In this document: positions 9,961-43,140 of the stretch, piece after piece | How the letters are laid out: each line of letters begins with the position of its first letter | Position numbering within the stretch: the stretch's first letter is position 1 | Assembly: GCA_008632985.1 (NCBI GenBank) | Contig: QPGO01000133.1 | Span: 1 to 64,000, forward strand | Direction: 5' to 3' | Source: Psammoneis japonica | Taxonomy: Eukaryota | Length of the DNA: 64,000 nt | Program-made: the position numbers and the translations under genes | Notes under the pieces: model-generated | The model's database searches: none | The model's input: only the letters and a program-made list of their open reading frames with translations | Told to the model about the DNA's origin: nothing

Positions 9961-9972
9961 GTGCTGTAAGCC

Positions 9973-10015: not shown

Positions 10016-10120
10016 TATCATGTCGTGTTCAGTGTGGTCGTGTGATGTGCGATTTGGCTTCTCATCATGTCTCACGTCTCATACTCCATACAAACACGGA
10101 CTCAACCAGCAACCATCATC

Positions 10121-15113: not shown

Positions 15114-15935
15114 TTCATTCACATGGGAACAATGTGCTCTTGCATGGGTGAGGCAGAGTCATCTGTCACCCAGTCATCACCCAATGCAGGGGACACAACC
15201 TTGCCAAGTTCTGCCCAAGACTGCCTCAGTCCCCAGGATTTAAGCCCAAAAAACCACCACCCAAGCCCCCATGCCCCCCTTGATGCTCCACCCATGGAGG
15301 GCAAGCCCGAGGCATGGGAGATGAAGTTGAGCCCAACAACAATGGCAAAGTGACATCCGATTTGAGAGTGCAAGCCAACTTGACAAAGGCACTGTCATCT
15401 GCAAAAGAGGAGAAGAAATCAGGCATGATGGGAGAGAGACAAGCAAACAGAAACAGATTTTTTCAAAACTTGCAGCAGTCCAGTCACAGTGACCAATGTT
15501 CCTGTTCCAACAAAGCTGGAAAAGTGAGAAGAGCAAAAAGACCATGCGGGGTCATCTTGGCTCAGATGTGCCCTCCTCCAGGTGGTCAGCAACCAGAAAG
15601 TGTCGCCCTTGTTGGGCGGGCATGCTGAAGGCTTGGTGTCTCCATCTAAACTTGGGTGTGAAGAGGACAAAAAGTTGTCAGCTGACGATGTTAGAGCAAG
15701 CAAGCAAGTTGTTGCCAATCTGAAATTTTGCTGCTGCACCCCCCTTGGTTGCCAACACAACAAAAATGCAGTGCCCCCCATTTTGTTGCTCCCTCAAGTC
15801 TGCATTTTTCCCTCCATGAAATGGCGCCACCGGCTGTTGAATGTGTTCGCTCAACAGCAACAACACATTTGATGTCATTGTTGTTGCAGCCACACTTGTT
15901 TGCATTCTTTTCATTTGTCAGCATGTGGCACAACA

Positions 15936-16550
15936 ATGGCACATGTGGCTGGAAGCAAAAACAACAAGAGTGAAGAACAACAGAGAGATTGAAATTGACA
16001 CGTCAATGGCTCACAAGCATCAGAGGCTCAAGTTTGTCCTTGAGCTTGTTGGCATCCTGTTGAACAACTTGCCACAAGTGCTTGAGAAAGCCAAGGACAT
16101 TGGCCTGATGCATGGTGGATGTTTGGGATTTGTTGAACAACAAGATGTGGATTGGCCAGTGCCAGAATGCAGCAGATTGCAGCATCGAAAGTTTGTGCAA
16201 GTGTGCAAACATCTCAAGCAGGGTGGTGTTTTGATGCATGGCATGACCATGACAGATGTGCACCACAAGAACAAACAAGATGAGGAAATGGAAAATCAAC
16301 AAAAAGAAAAACAAGAAAAGAGAAGAAGAAGAAAGACCATCTTCGGCTGCAACACAAGCACTGCGAGTCCTTCTGCAGTGGATGCCCCATCTTCGTCAAT
16401 GCAACAAAACTCCACCCCCAACAAAAATTGCTTTGACAATGCCTCAAAGGCATTCAACCAAATGCCTCAGCAGATTCGAATGTGGCAATTGTTCAAAAGA
16501 CACAAGTGCGCGGCATTGTGGTGCACTCAAGGGATGTTTTGAGTTTTGGC
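15936..16550 (+). pseudogene. Hypermutated copy of the gene at 7277
   Basis: Colinear with 7277-7888, and flanks also align (7000-8315 vs 15700-17005). Examples: TATATG->CACATG and GTATGTGAATATC->GTGTGCAAACATC. Confidence 0.9.
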
Positions 16551-17245
16551 TGTGGCGAGCTGGTCGTTTGCACTTGTGGCAATGGCGGTTCTTGGAAACG
16601 GGCAACTGCATGAAAAGCACATTCACCAAGCTTTACATGGGAAGACGAATCTTTGAAAGCTTTCGTTTTGTCTCCACTTGACATCTTCGATTTCACGGCT
16701 CTGCTGCAAGAACCCAATGATGTTGGCCAGAGCTTTCAAGTGGTCAAGTGCCGTTTTTTTGTGCAGACTTTCTGCTGAAACACTCAACTTTGTTGATTGC
16801 ATTGGATGGCCCATTTTTCAATTTATGGGGCTTGCGAGTGGTGCAAAGGAACAGCTGCTGCATGCGGCGCGGCTGTTCAGTCGACTTCACAGTCCATTGA
16901 AAATCCACATGCGTGCTCACACACGGATTTTGAATGCCACTGACACTGCTGCAGGCATGTTTTTCCCTGTGTGTTTATTTGCGCTATCGTCATCACAGTT
17001 GGTCCTGGAGGTGCAAAATTTGAAAACAGCTTGTTTGGGTTCATCTCGCTCGCTCGGCTGGCTCGCTCCCAGCGCCTCAAGACAGTCTGCACGTCAGCCG
17101 TTTTTGCGATCCAACGCTCGTCGACCCACGACTCAAAATCCGCGCGTAAAACTTGAAAACGGTCGTGTGCGGTTTGTTGTTCCTTTCGCTTTTCGCTGTG
17201 TCGCACAACATAAAACATCAACGCAGCGAGGACGAAGAAAGCACC

Positions 17246-19844
17246 ATGTTGCAAAGAGCCTTATTTCTGTCGGCGCTCATCGTTTGTCAAAAAGTTTATG
17301 CTGTCAATTAGAACAGCAAGCTTTTCATTCATGTAAGCTTTTTATTCCATGCACAGCGCACAGCGCTATGCAAAGTCGATTGTATCTCATTTATTGAACC
17401 GATTCCTGACGTTTTGCAATTTTTTTTTTGTCTTGCACAGTCTCCATCAAGTTTAAAGAAAGAGGACGGATACGATCATCGAGATGCCTTGTTTGGCGTT
17501 CCACCCTATGGTGGATCCATTCAGGGGAATGTATATCACGTGCAAGACGATTTGTGTAGCGTGACGAGCCTTACAAATCTCACTGTGTTTCCCACGCAGC
17601 CATTGTCGCCACCGTACATTCTCATGGTGGATCGTGGAGGTTGTACCTTTGTACAAAAAGTCCGCAACGCTCAGCATAACGGTGCCGCTGCTGTGATTGT
17701 AGCGGATAACACCTGTCTTTGTTCCGATGAGGAATGTGTGAAAGAGAATACACAAGACTCTTCATCATGCCAAAACGAGGAACCCATTCTTGCCGATGAC
17801 GGCTCGGGTGCCGACATTTCCATTCCAACCTTTCTCATGAAAAAGACGGATGCCGAAAAGGTGAAACAAGAACTCAAGGATGGAAATCCTGTTGTAATGG
17901 AAATGTCGTGGACTACAAAAGAAAAGGACCACGTTGTCTATGAACTCTACACGGTTCCAACCGACTTTGCATCACGAGACTTTTTGCACGGTTTTGGCAA
18001 TGTCGCGGTAGCGTTAGGAAACAAGGCGACCTTTGTTCCTCACATGTATGTTTATGATGGCGCCAAGTCTCACTGTCAAGGTGATTCCGGAGAGAATTTC
18101 TGTTTTAATTTGTGTACAAACGGAGGACGCTACTGTGAGACCGACCCGGATAACGATTTAGAAAAGGGCACATCAGGTGCCGATGTTGTTGCCGAGAGTC
18201 TTCGACGTTTGTGTATATGGAAGCAATATGGAGAGACAGATGGTATCGGCAAGCCGTGGTGGGACTACGTGGCTGAGTTTGACAAGGAGTGCTCCGTGGC
18301 CGGCAAGTTCAACGACACTGCCTGCATCCAAGAGGCCTATGATCATGCGGGTGTCGACAAGAACAAGATTGATGCCTGTATGGAGGATAGTGGTGGCTTG
18401 ACGAACGATGCAGCAAATGCATTGCTAGATTTGGAAATCGCGGCAGCGACGAGCAATGGCGTGGTTGTTCTTCCCACCTTGCTTGTCCAAACTACTGCCG
18501 TTCGAGGGCAGCTATCCACACAAAACGCCTTTTTTGCGATTTGCGCTGCTTTTACGGAAGGCACAAAACCAAGCATCTGCAATGAGTGCTCTGATTGCGG
18601 TTCTAGTTTTGACGGCTGTATCGCCAATGAAAGATGCGCTCCTCCAAACCTCACGTTCCTGCGGAAAAACCTAGTGTAGAGAATTCGTACGACGATGCGC
18701 TACCAACGACCCATTCGAAGACATGCTGTCTTCTGAAACAGTAATGGAATTTCTCGGTGGGCTTGGAGATTGTGGAATTGATATGGAGGAATTATGGGCA
18801 CGGCGGCAGGCTTGGGTGGAGAGAATCCCGACATGCAAGATCTGTCTAGCCTAGCTGAGATGGATCTGTTGAAAGAGTCTCCGGCTTGCAGTGATGCAGA
18901 GAAGGACCGCATGAGTGAGGCATTTGAGTCATTCAATGCTTGCACTGGATATGACATGTTGGAGTTGGAAGAATTGTGGCCTAGCGCCTTGGTGGGCGTG
19001 ATACAGAAATGCGCAAAATCGTTGATGGAAGTAGCCATTTCAACGAACGTCACAGACCTGGCCAACGCGGACTTTGAGCTAGACGATGTCCCGAAAGAGT
19101 GTTCCTCGGCCTTGTTGGGAACAATCCGCTCGGAACAGCCATTCGTCGGTTACTGTTGCATCCCGACGAAACACTACCTTGCTTCCAAGCCGTGTCTGAA
19201 GAGCTTCCACGGTGCTCGCTTGATCTTGGCCTATTGGCATTGATGGCGGACTGCTCAAGCTAGGCTCGTGTATAATTGGCAAAACCACTCCTCTTTGGGA
19301 AGGCTTTTGCAACATTACGTTGACAGGCTTTGACGAGTGTTTGCCCAAGAAGGGTGCCTTTGTTGAATCGGACTGTGAGACTGTTGCTCATTCTTGCGCC
19401 AATACTTCTGAAGGAGCACTGGGAGCATTCTTTGATTTGCCAAAGTCCTTAATGGGACTCCCGCTACCTGATACATGCGTCCGCTTGAGCAGTGTCAATC
19501 CGAAAGGTGCCGTAGTAGATCGATATGATGAGTTTCGGTCGACCTGCACGGCGGGAAGTCCCTTGTGGACAGCCTGGGAAAACGGAGACGTCGAGTCGGC
19601 TCAGCTGTATTTAGAAACCATGACTAGTGGGCCTTCTCAATCATTGGCTCTTCTGAAGGACGCCAAAACCGGGAGTTCGATAATTTCGTTTTTCAGTGGT
19701 TTGGTCACTGGCATGTGTGCTGTCGGACTTGCTGTCGCTGTTGTCATGGTACGAAAGAGACAAGTCAACAAGAAAGGAGCAGCAGCAGAAACAGCAAATG
19801 CCAAGTACAGTCCTGTTGTCCCCGATGAAGGAGAAATGGCCTGA
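17246..19844 (+). pseudogene. Vacuolar sorting receptor-like gene (signal peptide, PA domain, VSR central domain, Cys-rich region, TM, YxxPhi tail), disrupted
   Basis: Exon 1 (17246-17332) encodes a signal peptide with an in-frame TAG at 17309-17311; intron 17333-17440. Motifs ALFGVPPYGGSI, VDRGGCTFVQKVRNAQ, CTNGGRYC and ESLRRLCIW. Downstream fragments 18794-19243 and 19320-19844 carry the TM and KYSPV. A single gene spanning the frameshifts is inferred. Confidence 0.7.
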
Positions 19845-21110: not shown

Positions 21111-21930
21111 CTAAAAACCACTAGGCTTGTGATCCCATATATTCACTGCAAAGGTATATCGCTTTCCATTCTCAATCTCATTGACACGATGCCATTTTGA
21201 AACATTGAGAATGACGAGTCGATTGTATTCGGGACGAATCGCTTCGGGTGCCGTTTCAATTTCCATCTCGGTCGCGTCCGCAGGGAGAATTTCCAAGTAT
21301 CCACCCATCAGGTCATGATGCGGATATCCGTACAATACGGCACCCATGACTGGATGAGCCAATACCTCTTGAGATTCGTACAAGCCTTCATCCTTGTCGA
21401 CATGCCACGCCAGTCCCTTGGTGGTGGACAAAATGTTGCACCAATACTCGTAGCCCACAAAGTCGTGCTCCGTTTTGGACCAAATGTCAATGGCCAACTG
21501 CTGCCAAAGATTCAATTCTTCATGTCCCCCTTTCACCTATTTTATCCATCCATTGCGTCGGACGGTCGTTGCATTCTTCCCACAGAGTCTTGTTTGCCAG
21601 TTTTATTAGGATATCCTTGTCTTGCACAAAGGAATTAAAAATCGTCAACCCGCCATTACTCTTGGACGTTTCAATACGATTCCATTCCTTTCTACTTCTT
21701 CCAAGGGATCCACAGGAGGCAGCGGTGCTTGTCGCGGATTGGACGACGTCGTCATGGGATTCTCATTATCATTTCTTGTGTTGGTCGTCCAACCATTGTC
21801 ATGATTGTAGTTGTTTGTTAAGAATTGACGAATCACCATGGATGCCACCACGATAAAGACACCCACAAAAAAGGGATTCACCACATTTTGCTTGTCATTA
21901 CTATTGTTAATGACTGTCTTGTTGTCGTCA
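21111..21930 (-). pseudogene. 2OG-Fe(II) oxygenase with N-terminal membrane anchor; 5' part frameshifted
   Basis: WHVDKDE (HxD)...GGYLEI...PEYNRLVIL...WHRV...RYTFAVNIW lies in 21111-21536. Upstream segments sit in other frames (FVQDKDILIKLANKTLWEEC; hydrophobic PFFVGVFIVVASMVI). Confidence 0.65.
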
Positions 21931-22199: not shown

Positions 22200-22227
22200 C
22201 GCCATCCAGGTAGTTTAGGCGCTTGTG

Positions 22228-25200
22228 ACACAAGCAATGTGATGGGCCAGTGGTGCTGGCGTTGAGTTCAATCCGTCGAGGCGGATTTGTCGCTGAAGGT
22301 GCAGTGCAGAAATTGTGAGAATGCAGCATCAACATGACGGATTTTTGTGACATGCTATTGCATCTTTGGTGTTGTTTCTCACTTCTTGTCATCATTTTGA
22401 CGCATGTGCCACAAGGTGTCCACGGGGCTTGGGTTTTTATGGTGCTGACTTTCTCTTCGGAACTTGTCGTTGAATGATCAAAATTGAGCTGCCACTGGAA
22501 TTTATGGCAAAGAGTTGGCGGCGGTGATGTCTCAACATCCCTTGGGCCGATTTTCGCGATTCTTGTTTCATCACCAATGGAAATTGTACAAGGAATCCAA
22601 GAGGCTTGGTTTTGTTGTGCAAAATTCCATTCTGTGCAGATGGATTTATTGGGTGCCGTGCGCACAGAAATGATGCTTCAATTGGAAGGGGCGCTCCAGC
22701 GATGTTGTGGATTGAACAAGGAAGAATGAAGCCCCAGACACACACTGCATGTGACAAGAATGTCAAATGTGAATGTCAAACATGGCACGGGGTTTTTTAC
22801 GTCAGTTGATCGTGTCGGGTTGCCTTGATTTGACAGAACATTCCACGGCACCAACCGGTTTGACATGTGGCTGGAAATCGGCTTCCTCCAGTGTTCCAAC
22901 CAATTTGACCTTGCTTGCATGGGCAAGCTGTTGTCGCCTGGTTCGGGCGTTCCATGCGCCTTTAGACCCATCCACCACGACATCGTTGGGGGTTGTTTGA
23001 ATGGCCTCTGGTTGGTGAAGTCTTGTTCACATTGACAAGTCACCCCGCCAAGAAATAACGTGAGTGCTGTCAAGGTTGGCTTGTAATGCTTTTTAGACGG
23101 CATGGTCTCGGTTGTGTTGTTGCACAAATCCATCAAAAACGCGACGCACCATGCAACAACCCGGTTGTTTCGACACGGGAAAAATTCCCGTGCTTCCTCC
23201 ACAAGAACACGGAAGATGCGGTTGCTGAAGTGGGGTAACGGTCAGTGCAATGTGTGGAATTCAACGGAGAAATGCTACGGAATGCAACATGGGTTGTGTT
23301 CCCGGGATAATGTGGAGGTAGACGGAAAGAATGCAACCCTGGGTACAACTGCGCAGGGTCTAGCACTTCTTCTACAGGGTCACCAGGAAAGCACAGACAC
23401 CGACTTCCGCTACATCAACCTGCAGCACCCTCCAAGACGCGCAGCTGCGAAGACAACCAAAAAAGAAAACGATCGCGACAATGGCCTCCCTTGCGTCGCT
23501 GACATCTATGTCTATTTTTGCCGTATTTTCCCGTTTCTTTTCGCAGCATTCGGAGCTTTTATACAAGCAATGTGATGGGCTAGTGGTGCTGGCGTTGAGT
23601 TCAATCCGTCGAGGCGGATTTGTTGCTGAAGGTGCAGTGCAGAAATTGTGAGAATGCAGCATCAACATGACGGATTTTTGTGACATGCTGTTGCATCTTT
23701 GGTGTTGTTTCTCACTTCTTGTCATTGTTTTGACGTATGTGCCACAAGGTGTCCACGGGGCTTGGGTTTTTATGGTGCTGACTTTCTCTTCGGAACTTGT
23801 CGTTGAATGATCAAAATTGAGCTGCCACTGGAATTTATGGCAAAGAGTTGGCGGCGGTGATGTCTCAACATCCCTTGGGCCGATTTTCGCGATTCTTGTT
23901 TCATCACCAATGGAAATTGTACAAGGAATCCAAGAGGCTTGGTTTTGTTGTGCAAAATTCCATTCTGTGCAGATGGATTTGTTGGATGCCGTGCGCACAG
24001 AAATGATGCTTCAATTGGAAGGGGCGCTCCAGCGATGTTGTGGATTGAACAAGGAAGAATGAAGCCCCAGACATGCACTGCATGTGACAAGAATGTTAAA
24101 TGTGAATGTCAAACATGGCACGGGGTTTTTTACGTCAGTTGATCGTGTCGGGTTGCCTTGATTTGACAGAACATTCCACGGCACCAACCGGTTTGACATG
24201 TGGCTGGAAATCGGCTTCCTCCAGTGTTCCAACCAATTTGACCTTGCTTGCATGGGCAAGCTGTTGTCGCCTGGTTCGGGCGTTCCATGCGCCTTTAGAC
24301 CCATCCACCACGACATCGTTGGGGGTTGTTTGAATGGCCTCTGGTTGGTGAAGTCTTGTTCACATTGACAAGTCACCCCGCCAAGAAATGACGTGAGTGC
24401 TGTCAAGGTTGGCTTGCAATGCTTTTTAGACGGCATGGTCTCGGTTGTGTTGTTGCACAAATCTGTCAAAAACGCGACGTACCATGCAACAACCCGGTTG
24501 TTTCGATGCGGGAAAAATTCCCGTGCTTCCTCCACAAGAACACGGAAGATGCGGTCGCTGAAGTGGGGTAACGGTCAGTGCAATGTGTAGAATTCAACGG
24601 AGAAATGCTACGGAATACAACATGGGTTGTATTCCCGGGACAATGTGGAGGTAGACGGAAAGAATGCAACCCTGGGTACAACTGCGTAGGGTCTAGTGCT
24701 TCTTCTACAGGGTCACCAGGAAAGCACAGACACCGACTTCCGCTACATCAACCTGCAGCACCCTCCAAGACGCGCAGCTGCGAAGACAACCAAAAAAGAA
24801 AACGATCGCGACAATGGCCTCCCTTGCGTCGCTGATGTCTACATCTGTTTTTGCCGCAATTTCCTGTTTCTTTTCGCAGCATTCGGAGCTTTTACACAAG
24901 CAATGTGATGGGCCAGTGGTGCTGGCGTTGAGTTCAATCCGTCGAGGCGGATTTGTCGCTGAAGGTGCAGTGCAGAAATTGTGAGAATGCAGCATCAACA
25001 TGACGGATTTTTGTGACATGCTGTTGTGTCTTTGGTGTTGTTTCTCACTTCTTGTCATCATTTTGACGCATGTGCCACAAGGTGTCCACGGGGCTTGGGT
25101 TTTTATGGTGCTGACTTTCTCTTCGGAACTTGTCGTTGAATGATCAAAATTGAGCTGCCACTGGAATTTATGGCAAAGAGTTGGCGGCGGTGATGTCTCA

Positions 25201-28200
25201 ACATCCCTTGGGCCGATTTTCGCGATTCTTGTTTCATCACTGATGGAAATTGTACAAGGAATCCAAGAGGCTTGGTTTTGTTGTGCAAAATTCCATTCTG
25301 TGCAGATGGATTTATTGGATGCCGTGCGCACAGAAATGATGCTTCAATTGGAAGGGGCGCTCCAGCGATGTTGTGGATTGAACAAGGAAGAATGAAGCCC
25401 TGGACACGCACTGCATGTGACAAGAACATTAAATGTGAATGTCAAACATGGCACGGGGTTTTTTACATCAGTTGATCATGTCGGGTTGCCTTGATTTGAC
25501 AGAACATTCCACGGCACCAACCGGTTTGACATGTGGCTGGAAATCGGCTTCCTCCAGTGTTCCAACCAATTTGACCTTGCTTGCATGGGCAAGCTGTTGT
25601 CGCCTGGTTCGGGCATTCCATGCGCCTTTAGACCCATCCACCACGACATCGTTGGGGGTTGTTTGAATGGCCTCTGGTTGGTGAAGTCTTGTTCACATTG
25701 ACAAGTCACCCCGCCAAGAAATGACGTGAGTGCCATCAAGGTTGGCTTGTAGTGCTTTTTAGACGGCATGGTCTCGGTTGCATTGTTGCATAAATCTGTC
25801 AAAAACGCGACGCACCATGCAACAACCCGGTTGTTTCGATGCGGGAAAAATTCCCGTGCTTCCTCCACAAGAACACGGAAGATACGGTCGCTGAAGTGGG
25901 GCAACGGTCAGTACAATGTGTAGAATTCAACGGAGAAATACTACGGAATACAACATGGGTTGTATTCCCGGGATAATGTGGAGGTAGACGGAAAGAATGC
26001 AACCCTGGGTACAACTGCGTAGGGTCTAGTACTTCTTCTACAGGGTCACCAGGAAAGCACAGACACCGACTTCCGCTACATCAACCTGCAGCACCCTCCA
26101 AGACGCGCAGCTGCGAAGACAACCAAAAAAGAAAACGATCGCGACAATGGCCTCCCTTGCGTCGCTGACATCCACATCTATTTTTGCCGTATTTTCCCGT
26201 TTCTTTTCGCAGCATTCGGAGCTTTTATACAAGCAACATGATGGGCTAGTGGTGCTGGCGTTGAGTTCAATCCGTCGAGGCGGATTTGTCGCTGAAGGTG
26301 CAGTGCAGAAATTGTGAGAATGCAGCATCAACATGACGGATTTTTGTGACATGCTATTGCATCTTTGGTGTTGTTTCTCACTTCTTGTCATCATTTTGAC
26401 GCATGTGCCACAAGGTGTCCACGGGGCTTGGGTTTTTATGGTGCTGACTTTCTCTTCGGAACTTGTCGTTGAATGATCAAAATTGAGCTGCCACTGGAAT
26501 TTATGGCAAAGAGTTGGCGGCGGTGATGTCTCAACATCCCTTGGGCCGATTTTCGCGATTCTTGTTTCATCACTGATGGAAATTGTACAAGGAATCCAAG
26601 AGGCTTGGTTTTGTTGTGCAAAATTCCATTCTGTGCAGATGGATTTGTTGGATGCCGTGCACACAGAAATGATGCTTCAATTGGAAGGGGCGCTCCAGCG
26701 ATGTTGTGGATTGAACAAGGAAGAATGAAGCCCCAGACACGCACTGCATGTGACAAGAATGTTAAATGTGAATGTCAAACATGGCACGGGGTTTTTTACG
26801 TCAGTTGATCGTGTCGGGTTGCCTTGATTTGACAGAACATTCCACGGCACCAACCGGTTTGACATGTGGCTGGAAATCGGCTTCCTCCAGTGTTCCAACC
26901 AATTTGACCTTGCTTGCATGGGCAAGCTGTTGTCGCCTGGTTCGGGCGTTCCAAACGCCTTTAGACCCATCCACCACGACATCGTTGGGGGTTGTTTGAA
27001 TGGCCTCTGGTTGGTGAAGTCTTGTTCACATTGACAAGTCACCCCGCCAAGAAATGACGTGAGTGCTGTCAAGGTTGGCTTGCAATGCTTTTTAGACGGC
27101 ATGGTCTCGGTTGTGTTGTTGCACAAATCCATCAAAAACGCGACGTACCATGCAACAACCCGGTTGTTTCGATGCGGGAAAAATTCCCGTGCTTCCTCCA
27201 CAAGAACACGGAAGATGCGGTCGCTGAAGTGGGGCAACGGTCAGTGCAATGTGCAGAATTCAACGGAGAAATGCTACGGGGTGCAACATGGGTTGCATTC
27301 CCGGGATAATGTGGAGGTAGACGGAAAGAATGCAACCCTGGGTACAACTGCGTAGGGTCTAGTGCTTCTTCTACAGGGTCACCAGGAAAGCACAGACACC
27401 GACTTCCGCCACATCAACCTGCAGCACCCTCCAAGACGCGCAGCTGCGAAGACAACCAAAAAAGAAAACGATCGCGACAATGGCCTCCCTTGCGTCGCTG
27501 ATGTCTGTGTCCATTTTTGCCGCATTTTCCCGTTTCTTTTCGCAGCATTCGGAGCTTTCACACAAGCAATGTGATGGGCCAGTGGTGCTGGCGTTGAGTT
27601 CAATCCGTCGAGGCGGATTTGTCGCTGAAGGTGCAGTGCAGAAATTGCGAGAATGCAGCATCAACATGACGGATTTTTGTGACATGCTGTTGCATCTTTG
27701 GTGTTGTTTCTCACTTCTTGTCATCATTTTGACGCATGTGCCACAAGGTGTCCACGGGGCTTGGGTTTTTATGGTGCTGACTTTCTCTTCGGAACTTGTC
27801 GTTGAATGATCAAAATTGAGCTGCCACTGGAATTTATGGCAAAAAGTTGGCGGCGGTGATGTCTCAACATCCCTTGGGCCGATTTTCGCAATTCTTGTTT
27901 CATCACCAATGGAAATTGTACAAGGAATCCAAGAGGCTTGGTTTTGTTGTGCAAAATTCCATTCTGTGCAGATGGATTTATTGGATGCCGTGCGCACAGA
28001 AATGATGCTTCAATTGGAAGGGGCGCTCCAGCGATGTTGTGGATTGAACAAGGAAGAATGAAGCCCCAGACACGCACTGCATGTGACAAGAATGTTAAAT
28101 GTGAATGTCAAACATGGCACGGGGTTTTTTACGTCAGTTGATCGTGTCGGGTTGCCTTGATTTGACAGAACATTCCACGGCACCAACCGGTTTGACATGT

Positions 28201-31200
28201 GGCTGGAAATCGGCTTCCTCCAGTGTTCCAACCAATTTGACCTTGCTTGCATGGGCAAGCTGTTGTTGCCTGGTTCGGGCGTTCCATGCGCCTTTAGACC
28301 CATCCACCACGACATCGTTGGGGGTTGTTTGAATGGCCTCTGGTTGGTGAAGTCTTGTTCACATTGACAAGTCACCCCGCCAAGAAATGACGTGAGTGCT
28401 GTCAAGGTTGGCTTGTGACACTTTTTAGACGGCATGGTCTCGGTTGTGTTGTTGCACAAATCTGTCAAAAACGCGACGTGCCATGCAACAACCCGGTTGT
28501 TTCGACACGGGAAAAATTCCCGTGCTTCCTCCACAAGAACACGGAAGATGCGGTCGCTGAAGTGGGGTGACGGTCAGTGCAATGTGTAGAATTCAAAGGA
28601 GAAATGCTACGGAGTGCAACATGGGTTGTATTCCCGGGATGATGTGGAGGTAGACGGAAAGAATACAACCCTGGGTACAACTGCGCAGGGTCCAGCACTT
28701 CTTCTACAGGGTCACCAGGAAAGCACAGACACCGACTTCCGCTACATCAACCTGCAGCACCCTCCAAGACGCGCAGCTGCGAAGACAACCAAAAAAGAAA
28801 ACGATCGCGACAATGGCCTCCCTTGCGTCGCTGACATCCATGTCTGTTTTTGCCGCATTTTCCCGTTTCTTTTCGCAGCATTCGGAGCTTTTATACAAGC
28901 AATGTGATGGGCTAGTGGTGCTGGCGTTGAGTTCAATCCGTCGAGGCGGATTTGTCGCTGAAGGTGCAGTGCAGAAATTGTGAGAATGCAGCATCAACAT
29001 GACGGATTTTTGTGACATGCTGTTGCATCTTTGGTGTTGTTTCTCACTTCTTGTCATCATTTTGACGCATGTGCCACAAGGTGTCCACGGGGCTTGGGTT
29101 TTTATGGTGCTGACTTTCTCTTCGGAACTTGTCGTTGAATGATCAAAATTGAGCTGCCACTGGAATTTATGGCAAAGAGTTGGCGGCGGTGATGTCTCAA
29201 CATCCCTTGGGCCGATTTTCGCAATTCTTGTTTCATCACCAATGGAAATTGTACAAGGAATCCAAGAGGCTTGGTTTTGTTGTGCAAAATTCCATTCTGT
29301 GCAGATGGATTTGTTGGATGCCGTGCACACAGAAATGATGCTTCAATTGGAAGGGGCGCTCCAGCGATGTTGTGGATTGAACAAGGAAGAATGAAGCCCC
29401 AGACACGCACTGCATGTGACAAGAATGTCAAATGTGAGTGTCAAACATGGCACGGGGTTTTTTACGTCAGTTGATCGTGTTGGGTTGCCTTGATTTGACA
29501 GAACATTCCATGGCACCAACCGGTTTGACATGTGGCTGGAAATCGGCTTCCTCCAGTGTTCCAACCAATTTGACCTTGCTTGCATGGGCAAGCTGTTGTC
29601 GCCTGGTTCGGGCGTTCCACACGCCTTTAGACCCATCCACCACGACATCGTTGGGGGTTGTTTGAATGGCCTCTGGTTGGTGAAGTCTTGTTCACATTGA
29701 CAAGTCACCCCGCCAAGAAATGACGTGAGTGCTGTCAAGGTTGGCTTGCAATGCTTTTTAGACGGCATGGTCTCGGTTGTGTTGTTGCACAAATCTGTCA
29801 AAAACGCGACGCACCATGCAACAACCCGGTTGTTTCGATGCGGGAAAAATTCCCGTGCTTCCTCCACAAGAACACGGAAGATGCGGTCGCTGAAGTGGGG
29901 TAACGGTCAGTGCAATGTGTAGAATTCAACGGAGAAATGCTGCGGAATACAACATGGGTTGTATTCCCGGGACAATGTGGAGGTAGACGGAAAGAATGCA
30001 ACCCTGGGTACAACTGCGTAGGGTCTAGTGCTTCTTCTACAGGGTCACCAGGAAAGCACAGACACCGACTTCCGCTACATCAACCTGCAGCACCCTCCAA
30101 GACGCGCAGCTGCGAAGACAACCAAAAAAGAAAACGATCGCGACAATGGCCTCCCTTGCGTCGCTGATGTCTACATCTGTTTTTGCCGTATTTTCCCGTT
30201 TCTTTTCGCAGCATTCGGAGCTTTTACACAAGCAATGTGATGGGCCAGTGGTGCTGGCGTTGAGTTCAATCCGTCGAGGCGGATTTGTCGCTGAAGGTGC
30301 AGTGCAGAAATTGTGAGAATGCAGCATCAACATGACGGATTTTTGTGACATGCTATTGTGTCTTTGGTGTTGTTTCTCACTTCTTGTCATCATTTTGACG
30401 CATGTGCCACAAGGTGTCCACGGGGCTTGGGTTTTTATGGTGCTGACTTTCTCTTCGGAACTTGTCGTTGAATGATCAAAATTGAGCTGCCACTGGAATT
30501 TATGGCAAAGAGTTGGCGGCGGTGATGTCTCAACATCCCTTGGGCCGATTTTCGCGATTCTTGTTTCATCACCAATGGAAATTGTACAAGGAATCCAAGA
30601 GGCTTGGTTTTGTTGTGCAAAATTCCATTCTGTGCAGATGGATTTATTGGATGCCGTGCGCACAGAAATGATGCTTCAATTGGAAGGGGCGCTCCAGCGA
30701 TGTTGTGGATTGAACAAGGAAGAATGAAGCCCTAGACACGCACTGCATGTGACAAGAATGTTAAATGTGAATGTCAAACATGGCACGGGGTTTTTTACGT
30801 CAGTTGATCATGTCGGGCTGCCTTGATTTGACAGAACATTCCACGGCACCAACCGGTTTGACATGTGGCTGGAAATCGGCTTCCTCCAGTGTTCCAACCA
30901 ATTTGACCTTGCTTGCATGGGCAAGCTGTTGTCGCCTGGTTCGGGCGTTCCATGCGCCTTTAGACCCATCCACCACGACATCGTTGGGGGTTGTTTGAAT
31001 GGCCTCTGGTTGGTGAAGTCTTGTTCACATTGACAAGTCACCCCGCCAAGAAATAACGTGAGTGCTATCAAGGTTTGCTTGTAATACTTTTTAGACGGCA
31101 TGGTCTCGGTTGTATTGTTGCATAAATCTATCAAAAACGCGACGTACCATGCAACAACCCGGTTGTTTCGATACGGGAAAAATTCCCGTGCTTCCTCCAC

Positions 31201-31311
31201 AAGAACACGGAAGATACGGTCGCTGAAGTGGGGTAACGGTCAGTACAATGTGTAGAATTCAACGGAGAAATACTACGGAATACAACATGGGTTGTATTCC
31301 CGGGATAATGT
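22228..31311. repeat. Tandem array of a 1333-bp unit, about 6.8 copies
   Basis: ORF track recurs at exact 1333 spacing (23372, 24705, 26038, 27371, 28704, 30037). Units start at 22228, 23561, etc.; the array ends at 31311. Confidence 0.97.
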
Positions 31312-31421
31312 ACCGGTACTCTATTCTCTATTGTATTGTCTCATCATTAATCACTCATCATTGTTGGTGCTCTTTTTCTTCTGCTGCACTACGTACTACT
31401 GCTATCGATCAAGCTTGTGTC

Positions 31422-32719
31422 ATGAGCAGAGCGCTTGTTTCACTGCTTCTTGCGTTTGAAGCAACTTCTTCTTCTTGTTGGCATGCCGCCAGTGGTTTTT
31501 CTCCCGCAGCATCAACACCACCCCGCATAAAGCATTATGAGATGACAACTATTTTAAAGATGCAACAAAAACCACACTCGCCACAGCAGCAGCAACAACA
31601 ACAACAATTACGACGAAGGCAGCTTATAAGTTTGGGTCTTGGTGTATTGACGGCACCGCTGTTTTTGCCACGACCTCACGCACGCGCTGCGGTGGTGGAT
31701 GAACGCAACACTTTTGCCAACACGGCTTTCGATTCTTCGTATCGCAACGAGGAAACTCCAACGACGACTTCATCTTCGTCATCCATAGCTCCAACAGATG
31801 AGATTACCATTGAAATTAATTTGAGTGATTTGAATGCAAATAATGGTGGTGGATTGGGTATTGAATTGGGACAGATTGAGTTTCGGACCAATACACGTGT
31901 CGTGGTCAAGAGCGTCCGTCCCAATTCGTTGGCGTCCAAGGTTGGAATTCAACCCAATTGGGTCGTTGTTGGCGTCAATGGCCAGAGTGCCGAACGAACC
32001 GATGCCAAGGGAGTATCCATCATGGTAGCTCGAGCTTCCAAGAATAATGATGCATCATCGTTGGTACTGACCTTTCGCGATGCTTCCAAATTCAACAAGG
32101 ACTTGCAGAACTTGTCGCCCGATCAAACCGTCACGACCCAAGTTGCACCGGCGGGTGACACGACACAACGTCGAACCGACGGAAGTGTCAAGCTGGGATA
32201 CTCCGAAACCACACAGGAGGACCAACAGCTTTCCGTAACGCAACTGATTCCACCCAAATTGTGCAATCGTGGTGCACAAACGGATGATTTGTTGGAAATT
32301 TCGTATATTGGACTTTTGGCGGATACGGGACAAGTCTTTGATGGATCCGCAATCACCATTGATGGCAAAGCCATACCGGGACGTGGGAATGATGTGCCTT
32401 TGTTTTTTGTATTGAAAAAGCAGCCCTTTGGACAGTTTCCGCCCGGATGGGATGTCGGACTAGAAGGAATGTGTGTGGTACGTATATATGTAATGCTGAG
32501 TTTGGCTCGTCTTTCGATGGGTTCAGCCTTTCTGACAAATAATCCACGAATCGTTTCTTTTGCTTGCTCATCATATAGGGTGAACGCCGCCGAGTCATTA
32601 TACCTCCAGCGTTGGCCTATGGTAACAAGGGTGTTCCTCGACGTGGGATTCCACCAAATGCAACGCTACAATACGATATTACTCTCATTTCCATCAATGG
32701 CTTGGCCATGCCACAATAG
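31422..32719 (+). CDS. Thylakoid-lumen FKBP-type peptidyl-prolyl isomerase with PDZ-like domain
   Basis: ATG 31422; signal peptide ending ASG-FSP; twin-Arg RRRQLISLGLGVL...ARA lumen signal; PDZ-like GLGIEL. FKBP motifs VFDGS, PPGWDVGLEGMCV, then intron 32478-32578, then GERRRVIIPPALAYG...IPPNATLQYDITL. Confidence 0.9.
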
Positions 32720-33109
32720 AGTATGACTGATGCTCTTTTGTACAAACGCAATGCATGCTACGGTGGTGGAATATATGCATGCAGTTAGAGATGCCGATTG
32801 ATGGTCGAGGAGCCGTCAACCAGAAACAGTTTTGTATGAATGCTGTAAAAATCGTTACATTTATGCTAATTGCCACATCAATGTTCCAAACAATGTTGCA
32901 ATGCAAATGCCACAATCTATATATGCGTCGAAACAAAAAATAGTTATCGACTGACCTGTCTTAAACACTAGACCTTGGGAGCATCGACAGCTTGGTCAGC
33001 TCTTCTCAAAAAGACGCCATCATTCCTTTTTCATGAGTCATTGCAATTGTTTTTATCTTCTGACGCTCACATTCAGCCCAATTCAGACAGGTGCAAAGAT
33101 CAAGTCTAT

Positions 33110-35325
33110 GGAATTCACAGTCATTTGGCAATGCTGCAAGAACCATTGGAGACATGAGATTTTTCCTGTGGCTGGATCTGGCAGTGTCTCTTCAAATAAT
33201 TGGGGGAACAAATCAAGCCAGCGATGAAATGCATTGGCTCAATGACCTTCCAAGGAGGGCATTTCAGTGATGGTTTTTGCGAAGCAAACACCTCTGTGCA
33301 TGGAATTGCATGGAGTTTTGCAGCCACAAACTGAGCACAGTGCTCAACTTGGCTGAAGCAATCATGACTGAGCACAAAAGAGTTGCTCACAATTTGTGAA
33401 AGTGTGTGTGCTCTTTTGTGCCCCACTTGCAAAATTTCTCTTGCCCACCTTTGAAGCAAATGCAGCATGCTCATCTTGTGTGCCAAGTGGCTTTTCTGGT
33501 GTGCCCTGCTGAGTTGTGGCAGCATGCTTTTGTTGGACAGCCCAAATGCAACCAACACTGCCAACACCACACAATGCCAAGTCAAATGCTCTTCACTTTT
33601 TTCCATCTTGCTGGATTGTGACCCACCACTTTTCTGCCTCATCTTTCCATCAATTGTGTTGAGTTGATCTTGCTGCTTAAACTGCAAAGAGACTCTGCAA
33701 CAGCTGCTTGCATTTTGCTGCTCCTTGTCAAATGGAGTCACCAACCACTTGTTTCCAAGAACATTGCAGATTGGCCACATTTGATTGTGATTTTGTGGCC
33801 ATTGCTTGTGCTCCCTCTGACTTGCAATCAGAACCTGATCCCCTTGTGAGATCTGTGTGCAAATCTTGTTCAAGGACACGCTCCAACCAGTGGTCATTTG
33901 ATCAACTCAAACACCATTGACGACCAGCTCATGCTCGCAGAGCCACACATGGGACACAGACCTGGCTGCTGACTTTGTTTCACTTTGATTGCAACATTGT
34001 GGCAAAACACAGGGACACACCAATTGCAGCCATGCCCACCACAACAAATTGCTTCCTTCTGCCACCATCCACTGTGCTTGCTTGTGGTGAAAGAGGAATG
34101 TTGTGCAGAGGTTGTACCACTCAAAGCAAGTTTTTTCACTGTGCTGGCCACTCTCTGCACTGACAAACATCTTGGCAATCCAACCCAAGCACTGCACAGC
34201 ACTTGCCATTGCTCCATGACAGAGAAGCAACTGACTTTCATTTTTTCTCACAATCTCCAGCAGCCAAGCCATGGCACAGCAGGACACCTCCTCAATTTTT
34301 TCCAACTTTGTGCCCTTTTTTGCTTCAAGAGGCACCGCTGCTGGCTTTCAAGTGACAGCTCTGGTGCAGGTTGCACATCTTCAAATCATTGCAAACAAAG
34401 TCAAGTGATGACATTGGGAGCAAGAGCCTTTGCCAAACAGCAGAGCTCAAGAGCCGTCAAGAACAAGGGCTGAAATGGCCTTGCTGTGCTGTGGGTGTGT
34501 GCCATGGAACAAGTGACAAGAGACAAAATACAAGCACGGCAAACAGCCAATCAAATGACTTACAAAACATGCTTGAAAGCACAGCAGAGAAAGAGGAGAG
34601 CTTTTTGCTGGGATCTCATGGACTCATCAAGATGCCCTGCCCAAAAAACCTGCCATGCAGCCCAGCAAAGTCAACTCTAAATCCAGCAGCTGTGGCTGCA
34701 ACCACAGTGCCCCCCTGGCACAGAGCCAGCCAACACAAGTGCAGCTGTGCCCATTCAATTCAATGCTCAATGCATGCTGCCATCCAAACAGGGACAAAAA
34801 CACTCCTTGCCAGTCCAGCTTTCAGCCAAAAGCAGTGCTCAGCAAACATTGGCTGCAAACCCCTTTGCCACAGCCTCAGTTTCCAATGTTTTCAAGAATG
34901 CTGTTGTGGCTCCCGGAGGCACTTGGCCCACAACAGAAAGTGGAAAAGCAAATGGGGTTTCCACCTTTCCCACATGGCTTCCTGCTGGGAAAGTCAATGG
35001 CACAAACACAATGGGCCCCTGAGCATCTCCAAAAGCTCACGCCAAGGGTTTTGCTCTCCCCAAACCTGTCAAAACAACATCAATGCCCGGCTCACCCAAA
35101 CAAGCTGCAACAGCCACAAATGCATTGCTGGCAAAATTGCCCACCGCGCCAAATGCCAGAGTGAGTGCACCAGAACCAGCATGGTCCCCATTGGCCTCAA
35201 TTTGGCTTTGGAGGGAGTCGCGTCGCGCCGTTGTGCTCCCGCTGCCGCAGAGCCAAAGAGCACACACACACACAACAGTTGGCCAGCATTCGTTTTTTTT
35301 TTCTGTTTCCACACATGGCAGTTCC
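33110..35325. other. TpA/CpG-depleted degenerate block between convergent genes
   Basis: Almost no TA over 2.2 kb, with an abrupt return to normal composition after ~35330. Confidence 0.8.
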
Positions 35326-39750: not shown

Positions 39751-40314
39751 AATGATTCTTTATACCTCATTTAAGTAATGATATGTTCATTTACTGTGCA
39801 GCCACTGCACATGCTGTACCGTATGACAGACAGCACATCGTCGTCACTGCATGCAGTGATGTGCTAGCTGCAGGGCCCTGCTGTACCGTACCGTACAGTG
39901 CAGCACAGCCGGCACAGAACATTTGATCATGGCGTCCATCATTCCACGCAGCGACAAGAGGCATCACACTCCATGTACAGTGCAGCACCGGCATGCAGAC
40001 TGCTGGCACCACATGGATGGATGGATGTGCCCGCCATGCCCATCCGTCCACCACCCGTCCTTCGCCCGCCGTCCGCACCACAGTCGCTCATCGCCATGGG
40101 ATTTTCCATCACCACATTCTGGTTGACTCACAAATTGATTGCACTGATCATTTCAACATTGTGCACTCTCCATGATGATTTGTGTGCTGTTTTTCTCATG
40201 CTGAACAAAGAAGTTTGTGGGGGAAAGGGCGGGGAGCTCGTCTGGCAAAAGCTCCTGAGCAACAAAAACAAGGAAGAGTGTTGAGAAATTTTCAAACAAC
40301 AATCTCAGAGATGG

Positions 40315-40316
<2 letters not shown>

Positions 40317-40354
<38 letters not shown>
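40317..40354 (+). repeat. (GA)19 microsatellite
   Basis: Directly visible. Confidence 0.95.
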
Positions 40355-40358
<4 letters not shown>

Positions 40359-42358
40359 GAGATGTGACAAGGTGTGACAAGCAATTGATTGATGAGGAAA
40401 TGCACTTTCTTGGGTGTGCGAAAAAACTTGAGTCATTTGGCATTGTCTTTGTGCACACTGTGGGTGCTTGTGGGAGAGACACATGGACAGTCAAGTTGTT
40501 TGTGCCCTGGTTGGCAACTGGCAGGTGCTTGAATTTGAGTGCCTGCACACCTGGGGTGTGCACTCATCTCTGGAGTGCACACTCAACCACCAACCACTGC
40601 CCGTGGTCGCTGGTGGATGACTTGGTTCACCTCAATCTTCATTGCCTTGGCCCGCTCTTCAGCATCTGCTGAACCTTTCACAACACTGTAAAAAGAGAGC
40701 ATGTGCCAGGGTCTTTGTGCTCTCACTCTCATTCATGGCACAGGCTCCAGGCTCCAGGGTCTTTGACAGCCACCACATGCAGCACTTGAGCAACACAAGG
40801 CAGGCTGGCTGCACACATTGTCCAGATGGTGCGCCTGGTCCTCTTCCACTCAGCATGTTTGGCACATCAGAGTTGACCCTCACTTGGTGGACCCTTTGAA
40901 TGCACACTTGGTGAGTGTGCTTTGATCAGAGGAAGAGCTGCAGGTTCAGGAGGTGCTTCAGGGAGCACGACGGGGGCAGGAAATTGTTGTCTTCCCCCTC
41001 ACAGGTGTGACTCAACTCATTGCATCTTGGAGTTGTTGGTTTGCAAGTGGCGCCAAACATTGCAGCTTGAAGCATTGATGAATGTGCACTTCTCTGCTGG
41101 CTGCCTCTCATGCCTTCTGAAGGTGCTCCAGAGGAGTGAGCTGCTCACCTTGCAGGTGCACTGTGTTTGACCCTTCCTTCTGAGTGATGTGTGGGTCAAC
41201 TGCTCAAGATGCGGGAGTTGCTTTAAGTGACCAAGTGGATCCATGAAGCAGCAGCAAAAAGATTGTCAAAAACCACATGATGCCAAGCAGCACAGCAACT
41301 CCAGCTTGAAAATTGAGGACTTGGGTTGGGGGTGCACGCTGGACATCTCCACATGCAAGCATCTCTCTGATGACAGCAAGGCACTGTGCTGGAGCCAGCA
41401 AAAATGTCTGCTTGGCAACATCTGAGGGAGTTGGAAGTGACGTTGCAGACGTGCTTGCTGGCAAAAGAGGTGCCCCCCTCCCCCCCTTTCAACAGAGTGA
41501 TGCATGAATGAGCACTGCTCTCCTCATGTTGGAGATGGGCCAAATGTTCTGCATTTGACAAGAACTCCACTCTGATGATGGGCATTGGCAGCACCACAAA
41601 ACCCATGTTGTGGCTCGTGCTCATGGGCATGCTGAACAAATGAGGTGGCTTTGAATGCACTGCCATTGGCAAGAAACTTTTGAGCAGCCACACCATGGTG
41701 CAGAGCATGCTTTTCAAATGCCTGCTTTGCTCACACATGGTCTCTACAACTGAAAACTCAAGTTTGCACTCAACCTGAACACACCCTGAGGTGTGGTTGA
41801 CAAGTGCCTGGCCTTCCTTAAATTGCTTGGATGTGCAGCTTTCCCATTGGAGTTGCAGGTCTCCAGCCCAGGAGACAAGATTCAAAATGATCAATGCTGA
41901 AAGCTTGGCACATTTGCAAATCTCTTGTTGATCTCAGAGAGATTGCTTGACTGAGTCAGCAGCCTCCTCTGAGAGTGATGATGTTGTGGCACAAAATGGC
42001 GCATGCTGGCATTCTTCTGGCCATCTGCCAATGCAGGTGCCACAAGTCTGGCAGATTTTGCCTTGAACAGGAGCCATCAGCAATGGCTGGCTCTTCAGTT
42101 TTGTGGACTTGAGTCCTTGACAATGCATGGTCACACTCAAAAACCATGATTTGGCCAGCATCGTTTCCCCTCCCTCATCATTCCCATCTGCCCCAACTCC
42201 AAAAATGTTCAATGTTGGTTTCGAGGTTTTGTGCATTGGCAGTTCACAGCGTTCAATGAAACGACAGTGAGCTGTGATGCCAATGATTGGAAAAGCAGTC
42301 CTGCGCGCAATCCTTGGTTGTGGTGGTCCACAATTCAGAGTCTGTTTTGTTGAAGTCT

Positions 42359-43140
42359 TCATCTGGGCCAATCAAGGTTTTGACAACTGCAGCGGCATTT
42401 GTTGCTGCTGTTGCTGTTGTTGCTGCTGCTGGATGACACTCCAACAGCCACTCCTGCAACCACAGTGGCAACAACCAGCAATGATGCAGCCCCCAAGAGA
42501 ACAAAGCAATTGCAATGACGACACTTTGCTGCCACATGGTGGTCATCATGTTCTGCTGGAATCTCGTCCTTGTCTTCAACCTGCTCTGCTTGGGCCACCG
42601 GAAGTTGACAAAAGCACAAGTTTTCTTCATGCAGCCATGCCATTCTCTTGTCATCATCTTGAGTGAGTTGAGCCTGGACAAGCACAGTGCTGCCGTTGTC
42701 ATCACCATCACCACCAAGGCTTTCACTGCTGGTTGGAAGAGTGATGGGATGATCCAAGGTTGTCACAGTGGCGACTCTGTCATGTCCAATGCCGGGTTCT
42801 GCCACTGGTCTCATGGCAGGTTGACCTCCAGGTCTCCAGGCAAATGCACCAGGCAAGACAAATGCAGGTGGGGAGTCAACGCCAGTGGCATTGACATCGG
42901 TTGCATCACCTGGCAATGACAAGATGCTGTTCACAGAAGCCACATTGGCCGCCTTCTGTCACTTGCCCTTTTTGGTTTGAGTGCTTGTCCCATGATTTTG
43001 GTTGCTGCTGGAAGCCACAAATCCATCCACTTGTTGTTGTTGTTGTTGCTCTTGCTCATGGTGATGTCCAGATTGAGGCTTTTTCTTTGTGTTGACACTG
43101 CTTGTAGATGGTCAATCTTTGCCGTCGTCTGGGCATGGCT
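42359..43140 (-). pseudogene. Hypermutated relic of a PGAFA/TM-type receptor-like host gene
   Basis: PGAFAW...VLVQAQL...VAQAEQV...hydrophobic LLVVATVVAGVAVGVSS has the same architecture as the N-terminus of the gene at 54065. Tyr-free and TA-free. Confidence 0.55.

Follow-up and report, generated by a model that had tools for sequence, protein, structure and literature searches.

Hypermutation of TpA dinucleotides to CpA or TpG has already been described in 2026 for integrated giant-virus and virophage DNA of one chlorarachniophyte, Bigelowiella natans, for which neither an enzyme nor a rule of targeting is known (Mettrop et al., bioRxiv 10.64898/2026.01.13.699255). According to the main text of this preprint, the hypermutated giant-virus region is single-copy and transcriptionally silent, clusters that are poor in TpA and rich in CpA+TpG are enriched for reverse transcriptase and DDE domains, and the mutation rate is ~1000 times the background; its authors propose adenine deamination with an ADAT2-like candidate and summarise that ADAR and ADAT/TadA-type deaminases prefer U/T 5' of the edited A. 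This main text makes no mention of boundaries, promoters, CpG or diatoms, and as such sharp ends near genes and the sparing of sister copies are not described in it. In the text of Hoguin et al. (2023, PMC9998398), DNMT4 relatives of RID are reported for many diatoms, with a function that is not known, and the transposons of Phaeodactylum are described as CpG-methylated. Here, we analyse a stretch of 64,000 nucleotides from Psammoneis japonica (contig QPGO01000133.1, positions 1 to 64,000; hereafter the 64-kb window), to which all positional tests of TA loss are confined, and in which Copia retrotransposons, a tandem array, old transposon relics and dead gene copies have lost TpA by a DNA-level, strand-symmetric and TA-specific process of transitions that acts after integration. 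Copies of the same repeats that lie close to genes have been spared, so that the fate of a sequence in this window depends on its position.

The window has ~48% G+C, many genes and few introns, and its ordinary DNA shows observed/expected (obs/exp) ratios of ~0.4-0.75 for TA and ~0.85-1.3 for CG when counted over 500 bp at a time. At the same resolution, five domains (~5100-6900, 8250-9930, 12800-16500, 33070-35200 and 40100-46900) are poor in both dinucleotides, with TA at 0.0-0.1, CG at 0.0-0.3 and CA+TG at 1.6-2.0, and the affected domains as a whole range from 0.0 to 0.19 for TA and from 1.5 to 2.0 for CA+TG. Both Copia elements and most of the tandem array have lost TA and retained CG, the CG obs/exp of these younger elements being 0.6-1.1 despite the TA loss. 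For segmentation we used a three-state hidden Markov model (HMM) on pyrimidine-purine dinucleotides, which returned 11 normal and 17 depleted segments with sharp ends, at which the number of TAs per 50-bp bin drops from 2-6 to 0 in one or two bins. The depleted segments are repeats or carriers of Copia domains. The repeats discussed below, with the long terminal repeats (LTRs) of the Copia elements, are the following.

12813-17134, no strand assigned: hypermutated domain with dead copies of neighbouring gene segments; TA-only margin at 16509-17134.
22215-31311, no strand assigned: tandem array, partly TpA-hypermutated; period 1333 bp, 6.82 units (u0-u6) of ~97% identity (self-BLAST and MAFFT).
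30227-31047, no strand assigned: TA-depleted first part of the terminal unit u6; 8 of 17 TA sites read CA or TG.
31054-31311, no strand assigned: spared array tail, 368 to 111 bp upstream of the ATG of a PDZ-FKBP gene; HMM boundary 31047/31054.
32918-33064, no strand assigned: transposon-derived edge with TA and CG kept, 190-340 bp past the FKBP stop codon.
33068-35209, no strand assigned: TA- and CG-depleted domain (7 TA, 13 CG, 499 CA+TG).
39896-46905, no strand assigned: old transposon relic, mostly TA- and CG-depleted (TA obs/exp 0-0.17, CG 0.03-0.56; HMM).
47017-53890, minus strand: Copia element 1 with both LTRs (self-comparison and domain search).
47017-47205, minus strand: 3' LTR of Copia 1, hypermutated, with 3 TAs left; between the element interior and the old relic.
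47206-53701, minus strand: interior of Copia 1, TA-depleted, CG kept (RVT_2 1.3e-08; motif HVDD).
53702-53890, minus strand: 5' LTR of Copia 1, spared, with 15 TAs; HMM boundary 53704/53709.
~58150 to beyond 64000, minus strand: Copia element 2 (domain search).
58146-58445, minus strand: TA-normal end of Copia 2 (probable 3' LTR plus the final ~20 codons of pol), upstream of a K+ channel gene; HMM boundary 58445/58449.
58449-63990, minus strand: Copia 2, TA-depleted, CG kept (RVT_2 9.6e-22, gag_pre-integrs 7.9e-06; motif HVDD).

The genes and open reading frames (ORFs) that border these repeats are listed next; the contigs of run X2 mentioned for one of them belong to the read data, which consist of contigs from three sequencing runs of one DNA sample that were mapped onto the window.

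~17312-19844, plus strand: vacuolar sorting receptor gene (domain search).
21111-21536, minus strand: 2OG-Fe(II) oxygenase gene (domain search).
31422-32726, plus strand: intact gene for a PDZ + FKBP-type protein (Pfam FKBP_C 1.1e-05, PDZ 4.8e-05; ORF 31227-32726); in-frame ATG at 31422, product beginning MSRALVSLLL.
53969-55324, plus strand: ORF of 451 aa that an earlier note on this DNA had labelled an LRR gene; first ATG at 54065, covered by X2 contigs.
56771-57861, minus strand: two-pore K+ channel gene with EF-hands (Ion_trans_2 2.1e-33 and EF-hand families); first ATG at 57859.

Compared with its inferred ancestor, the array carries 211 differences, of which 178 are TA>CA (82) or TA>TG (96), 16 are CG>TG/CA and 17 are of other kinds; calling TA sites is part of the rule by which this ancestor was reconstructed. 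The two outcomes are nearly equal in number, also at CG sites (33 vs 35), and they are interspersed along single copies with no long single-strand runs, which means that both strands were hit, site by site. A test for strand bias likewise found CA and TG counts near balance in the depleted domains. A search for a flank rule governing which strand is hit found no strong preference, and we draw no mechanism from it.

The direction of the change, from TA to CA or TG, is settled by genes and their dead copies, by sites with mixed outcomes, by the reverse transcriptases and by the ordinary TA level of the spared pieces. The segment 17213-18108 (~0.9 kb) of the receptor gene has a dead copy at 14182-15041, in which 25 of the 29 TAs of the gene read CA (13) or TG (12) and none is kept, and in which 37 of the 44 CGs read TG/CA and 3 are kept. 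A second pair, formed by a dead copy at 15879-16992 and the region of the ORF 7277-7888 (7220-8306), behaves in the same way, and in both pairs exactly one copy is intact. At many array sites some units read CA while other units read TG, for which a TA ancestor is needed. Reverse transcriptases canonically carry the catalytic motif YxDD; those of both Copia elements (48386-50023 and 58248-59975, minus strand) read LVHVDD, with His for the catalytic Tyr, and Tyr accounts for 0.2% of their residues compared with 0.6-3.4% in the in-frame translations of four neighbouring genes, as expected if TAY codons had been turned into CAY or TGY. Finally, the TA obs/exp is 0.0-0.19 in the element interiors and 0.6-0.76 in the spared pieces, which is the ordinary level and no excess. 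Taken alone, the LTR pair of Copia 1 with its 7 CA>TA and 5 TG>TA differences would resemble classical repeat-induced point mutation (RIP), and one could imagine that the gene-proximal copies gained TA by RIP-like C-to-T changes at CpA/TpG while the TA-poor state is the original one. This reversal is contradicted by the mixed array sites, by the TAs of the functional receptor gene that its dead copy lacks, by the TA levels and by the lost catalytic Tyr, and we regard it as hardly credible.

Several further observations concern the depleted domains themselves. Among the TAs that survive in 5110-7184, 8257-9931, 12813-17134, 33068-35209, 39896-53704 and 58449-63990, ATAN/NTAT contexts make up 14 of 125, compared with 517 of 1021 TAs in normal DNA; ATAT occurs 0 times among the survivors and 80 times in normal DNA, and TTAA and CTAA are ~3.3-fold enriched among the survivors. 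Apparently, the mutator favours A-T-A / T-A-T and avoids T-T-A-A. The loss of TAA and TAG has left long ORFs in several frames of the depleted domains, and Pfam searches with the ORFs of the array and most of those of the depleted domains gave no matches; these long frames are probably artefacts of stop-codon loss. For annotation this means that the removal of TAA/TAG together with the change of Tyr codons produces long false frames in hypermutated transposons, which domain searches miss.

In the older domains CpG has also given way to TpG/CpA, as would be expected for methylated cytosine. The domains of CG loss are nested inside those of TA loss, and on three gene-facing sides (6920-7184, 16509-17134 and 39896-40092, the last being a 197-bp margin at the left edge of the old relic) margins of 200-630 bp have lost TA and kept CG, from which it follows that TA loss reaches further, or runs faster, than CpG decay. 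At two of these sides the earlier note had described gradients of TA loss. At ~39790-39950 we find an abrupt step at ~39894 instead, together with a small number of TA-to-CA differences in one sub-repeat, the third in a set of three of 107 bp each. At ~16950-17250 the HMM places the TA-only margin at 16509-17134, and the dead copy at 15876-16985 keeps about half of its CGs from ~16450 onward, but has lost TA throughout.

A clear dependence on position is found in the tandem array, where the interval 31030-31311 next to the PDZ-FKBP gene corresponds to unit columns 818-1099. Over these columns the units u0-u5 hold 6, 7, 11, 4, 4 and 5 TAs and the terminal unit u6 holds 19, with CG counts of 17-18 in all seven units. 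At the 19 TA sites of columns 842-1094 (the last 258 bp), u6 retains 19/19 and each of the other six units 4-11/19; pooled over u0-u5, these sites read TA in 37 and CA or TG in 77 of 114 cases, and every lost TA is CA or TG. The array end beside the FKBP gene thus does keep its ancestral TAs, as had been claimed. Fisher's test of 0/19 in u6 against 77/114 in the other units gives p = 9e-9, a naive value that counts related copies as independent. Pairwise distances and shared derived states group the units as u0~u4, u1~u5 and u2~u6, and against its closest relative u2, the loss in u6 is 0/19 vs 8/19 (p = 0.003); counted as events, the tail sites require at least 29 independent changes, zero of them in u6 (p ~0.011). 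The sparing of the tail exceeds chance, if less dramatically than the raw counts imply.

The kinship of the units suggests that the array has undergone a four-unit duplication, and its history appears to comprise a dimer stage followed by this duplication, with mutation and amplification interleaved. Some array sites (columns 15, 34, 433 and 1289) show a period-2 alternation. Within u6 the last mutated TA site lies at 30759 and the first informative spared site at 31054, which places the switch within ~300 bp; all 8 TA changes of this unit are common to other units and may have been inherited, and its tail carries one private transversion. The left end of the array (22215) faces the divergent oxygenase gene, whose probable ATG it approaches from upstream to ~380 bp; since it does not come equally close to a gene, it does not serve as a counter-example.

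A second case is provided by the twin LTRs of Copia 1. The LTRs of an insertion are identical at integration; those of Copia 1 now differ at 20 positions over 189 bp, so that the changes must have arisen in integrated DNA, and editing of RNA or of cDNA is excluded as their source. At 12 sites the gene-proximal LTR reads TA where the distal one reads CA (7) or TG (5), the reverse case being found 0 times, and one further site is TG vs CA. Hence, 13 of the 16 changed pyrimidine-purine dinucleotides involve TA, and the TA counts are 15 in the 53k copy and 3 in the 47k copy; further differences, at 3 CG sites and one other site, are spread over both copies. When both LTRs are reduced to purine/pyrimidine code, they match at 100% over 186 bp, i.e., they differ by transitions only. 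As a very rough estimate from small counts, TA changed ~250 times as fast as other sites and ~10 times as fast as CG. The statement that the LTR beside the supposed LRR gene (53709-53890) keeps its TAs was therefore correct. Relative to the neighbouring ORF, the spared LTR occupies the stretch 175-363 bp ahead of the first ATG (54065), and it is at least 102 bp upstream of the first X2 contig end (53992). The boundary of TA loss at 53704/53709 is the junction of LTR and interior, the interior being depleted right up to it (44 TA vs 390 CG over 46908-53704), and the mutated LTR at 47k adjoins the older relic without TA and CG.

It could be argued that, like fungal RIP, the process recognises its targets by homology and loses strength towards the ends of repeats, and the affected sequences are indeed tandem repeats, multi-copy transposons and duplicated gene pieces. 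However, each LTR of Copia 1 borders the element interior at one end and non-homologous DNA at the other, both belong to the same multi-copy family, and with equivalent homology only one of them was hit, so that homology alone does not explain the asymmetry, in agreement with the earlier note. The intact segments 7220-8306 and 17213-18108 were spared as well while their twins are saturated, and RIP tends to leak past repeat borders rather than to spare repeat ends. In B. natans, a single-copy silent region is targeted (bioRxiv 10.64898/2026.01.13.699255), so that homology is not required there, which agrees with targeting by other means. We consider homology-dependent recognition very unlikely as the explanation.

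A different objection concerns the history of the copies, namely that the spared pieces are younger or were restored by ectopic gene conversion or, in the last array unit, by unequal crossover. Donors for such a repair exist, since the summed contig depth of the LTR family is ~1400-2700 compared with ~70-200 over genes (an excess of ~10- to 40-fold over the neighbouring genes), which marks the family as multi-copy, and the switch in u6 separates shared, possibly inherited changes (to 30759) from an untouched tail, much as a crossover would. But a crossover would yield a step and would not explain why the tail never mutated while the other units gained 8 to 15 changes at the same 19 sites. Conversion, in turn, would be needed independently at three gene-proximal places and would have to stop exactly at 53704/53709, and the 3 CG and one other difference over both LTRs do not suggest a recent replacement. 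From our point of view, such a history is accordingly an unlikely cause of the sparing, if a little less so than recognition by homology.

On the side of the K+ channel gene, Copia 2 is depleted over 58449-63990 (33 TA vs 343 CG) and TA-normal beyond it. The C-terminus of its pol protein, ...ADVLTKGIVTVKFEAIRKLLCGW, contains 5 TAs between 58415 and 58446, and the TA boundary at 58445 consequently falls inside the pol reading frame and not at a repeat border. The summed contig depth rises from 138 in the bin 57725-58141 to 1122 in the bin 58142-58558, which suggests that the LTR on this side sits ~100 bp to the right of where the earlier note had placed it (58011-58367); the TA-normal zone that had been reported there exists and ends at 58445, whereas the LTR coordinates are doubtful. 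A second copy of this 'LTR' was found nowhere in the window, neither in plain nor in purine/pyrimidine code. The pol region of Copia 2 also contains a 156-bp tandem duplication of 98% identity (59841-60151).

A third case of position-dependent sparing, weaker than the array tail and the LTR pair and absent from the earlier note, may be present 3' of the FKBP gene. In purine/pyrimidine code the stretch 32765-33064 resembles 44644-44850 in the old relic (score 90.5, best shuffle 58), and the part of it at 32918-33064 contrasts with 44700-44850. The edge copy holds 7 TA and 6 CG; at these sites the interior copy reads CA or TG in 8 cases, other letters in 5 and TA or CG in none, in an alignment that is noisy (133 of 225 columns identical). 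If accepted, this sparing faces the 3' end of a gene, which would fit a zone of open or transcribed chromatin better than selection on a promoter. The same search, run on 13 boundary flanks, recovered three known flanks of duplicate pairs and this new one, and 8 flanks did not rise above shuffles; a match of 31312-31611 to 45362-45636 (score 76.5, shuffle 60) was set aside as a likely low-complexity match.

By 50-bp TA counts and the HMM, sharp boundaries lie at 31047/31054, 53704/53709, 58445/58449, 39894/39896 and 33064/33068. Domain ends are found 356-380 bp ahead of three ATGs and 586 bp ahead of a fourth, and one stop codon is followed by such an end after ~340 bp. Run X2, although recorded as 'DNA?', behaves like cDNA, as its contigs skip pieces of 73-98 bp with GT..AG ends (55301-55375, 56014-56090, 56162-56261 and 56331-56412), and from the same contigs a spliced gene becomes apparent in the space that separates the 'LRR' ORF from the K+ channel gene. 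The cDNA-like contigs span 53992-58139, wholly inside the TA-normal segment 53709-58445. The Copia elements are almost without X2 coverage, which we do not take as a sign of silence. Contigs of run X1 differ from the window at many positions across the K+ channel gene, as if derived from a second haplotype. In total, contigs and window differ at 1329 positions, and among the 40 differences listed, 10 are in Copia 1, mostly CG-related and uninformative on the LTRs.

The proximity of the spared pieces to genes raises the question whether all copies were mutated alike and purifying selection then removed those lineages in which co-opted promoter or untranslated-region (UTR) bases beside the FKBP, 'LRR' and K+ channel genes had changed. 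Every spared piece is within ~100-600 bp of a coding end, and an X2 contig reaches 58139, into what the earlier note regarded as the LTR, so that transposon sequence may serve as 5' UTR or promoter there. Against this, successive TA sites look independent, and 19, 12 and ~5 TAs would each need separate protection; the protected TAs would include the last codons of a dead pol gene; and the array tail resembles the other units in its CG counts (17-18 in all) and in its other changes. Selection as the sole cause of the sparing seems unlikely to us.

Alternatively, adenines could be damaged equally in all repeats and be repaired better in the open or transcribed DNA near genes. This idea draws on the same positional data, and at either edge of the segment 53709-58445 the spared zone extends ~280-310 bp past the last cDNA-like contig end; such ends are not mapped transcription starts. 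Transcription-coupled repair alone would not cover the LTR at 53702-53890, since the first contig end (53992) is downstream of it, and differential repair is not separable by sequence alone from a mutator that is excluded from such DNA. We assign it about the same low probability as selection.

The array tail and the Copia 1 LTR pair, with 32918-33064 as a weaker case, bear out the proposal that identical sequence is mutated or spared depending on its position, and targeting or fixation of the changes therefore depends on location. Twin LTRs and sister units started out identical and ended up mutated or untouched according to where they lie, which speaks against targeting purely by homology and in favour of a positional cue. 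As to what this cue would be, we infer the chromatin domain, for which the nesting of CG-loss inside TA-loss domains and the place of the cDNA-like contigs inside the TA-normal segment are the only, indirect hints, and with moderate confidence we favour a mutator that is excluded from open, active chromatin or recruited to silent chromatin. In this scheme, silent repeats (Copia elements, the tandem array, older relics and dead gene duplicates) undergo mutation of their DNA after integration, in which TpA turns into CpA or TpG about equally on both strands, equivalent to A to G in 5'-TA-3'; the chemistry, judged from A>G with a 5' T, would be adenine deamination. The process is confined to domains that end within ~50 to 300 bp, a few hundred bases from coding ends and without following repeat borders. 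Copies inside the gene-proximal zone are spared and their sister copies are hit at 42-79% (array) or ~80% (LTR) of their TA sites, most likely because the mutator would reach silent, compacted or methylated chromatin and would be kept out of the open, transcribed surroundings of genes.

Several observations weigh against the exclusion of a mutator from gene-proximal chromatin. The comparators are two clean cases and one noisy case, all in one 64-kb window, and the K+ channel example has no comparator copy in the window from which the ancestral TA state could be read. The kinship of the array units makes the copies non-independent, so that the conservative p is 0.003 to 0.011 and not 1e-8, and the step inside u6 could be an unequal-crossover junction. 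TA loss is also patchy away from genes: the mid-array unit u2 has a smaller spared patch (8/9 TAs, columns 1003-1094), and the tail segment of u1 is without a change of its own relative to u5. Sparing is not limited to promoter-facing edges either, one case facing the 3' end of a gene. The gap between boundary and ATG, moreover, varies, being ~93 bp at 7184 (ATG 7277) and 123-177 bp at 9944; these short gaps (7184-7277 and 9944-10121) assume that the first ATGs are the real starts, and the two ORFs at these boundaries match no Pfam family.

The signature is not confined to this window. A metagenome search with the Copia 2 reverse transcriptase confirmed 3 loci out of 17 pattern matches, too few for a positional test. 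One of them, a contig (L001:1-1225) that encodes a Copia reverse transcriptase 48% identical to that of Copia 2, holds 2 TAs in 1225 bp (obs/exp 0.03) at a CG obs/exp of 0.49, with CA and TG at ~1.8, and it is this composition that extends the signature beyond our stretch of DNA; two more distant relatives (27% identity) have a normal composition.

Of the remaining features, two further genes were identified by domain searches.

1527-2570, plus strand: EF-Ts gene (domain search).
3006-4817, plus strand: ankyrin protein gene (domain search).

The closest named relatives of the EF-Ts protein are from diatoms (Seminavis robusta and a Rhizosolenia transcriptome), with identities of 66-73%. The ORF 53969-55324 matches zero Pfam families at E <= 0.001, which leaves its earlier label as an LRR gene unconfirmed at this threshold.

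Taken together, we tentatively propose that diatoms, like B. natans, have a genome defence that acts on DNA by TpA-specific adenine deamination and is guided by silent chromatin rather than by homology. If this were true, the system would have to be an old one, widespread across the SAR supergroup (stramenopiles, alveolates and Rhizaria). Its saturation would leave a lasting footprint of the end of heterochromatin beside each gene at a resolution of about one nucleosome, so that past chromatin boundaries could be read from sequence alone. The value of the present window lies in its natural experiments, i.e., twin LTRs and sister array units that began from identical starts. No report of TpA loss in diatom transposons was found in the literature searched, which left subscription journals outside its scope, and the occurrence of TpA hypermutation in a diatom as well as its sharp boundaries near genes appear to be new.

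Among the known systems, as far as the preprint on B. natans describes it, TpA hypermutation in that organism is the closest: in both cases the changes are nearly only A>G / T>C at TpA, giving TpG or CpA depending on the strand, mutation is confined to discrete regions of foreign or transposon-derived DNA, and the rough ~250-fold TA excess in our LTR pair is in line with the ~1000-fold rate given there. The host, however, is here a diatom-like stramenopile and not a chlorarachniophyte, the process acts on LTR retrotransposons, on a tandem array and on dead gene copies, all nearly saturated (TA obs/exp 0.0-0.1), and the older domains are also without CpG. This indicates the same signature as in B. 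natans, run to saturation on retrotransposons, a tandem array and dead gene copies.

With RIP of Neurospora and other ascomycetes, the process shares the character of a defence at the DNA level, with dinucleotide-specific transitions on both strands after integration that kill reading frames. RIP, in contrast, changes C>T at CpA, creates TpA and raises A+T, whereas here TpA is destroyed and G+C rises. Being triggered by homology, RIP also strikes both copies; in this window, one of two identical copies has escaped. As a candidate, fungal RIP fails on the TpA excess that it should produce (TA obs/exp 0.0-0.19) and on the rule that both copies are hit (the LTR, the array end and two intact segments were spared). 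The decay of 5-methylcytosine at CpG resembles the CG>TG/CA changes of the older domains, including 37 of 44 CGs in the dead receptor copy, and would account for this second layer. It leaves TpA untouched, though, and since the younger elements lost TA and kept CG and TA loss extends 200-600 bp beyond CG loss at three edges, the two processes can be told apart.

A-to-I editing by ADAR or ADAT/TadA-type enzymes shares the A>G outcome and, as the B. natans preprint summarises it, the 5' U/T preference. RNA is the main substrate of such enzymes, and no enzyme for the process was identified in this window. Since a single insertion has come to carry two different LTRs and both strands were affected, integrated DNA must have been the substrate, and ADAR-like hyperediting of RNA before integration is ruled out by the 13 TA sites at which the LTRs differ and by the mixture of CA and TG within copies. 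APOBEC3, finally, is likewise a deaminase-type system in which hypermutation inactivates retroelements. It introduces strand-specific G>A changes into cDNA before integration, which are identical in both LTRs, whereas the changes in this window are strand-symmetric, lie at TA and arose after integration.

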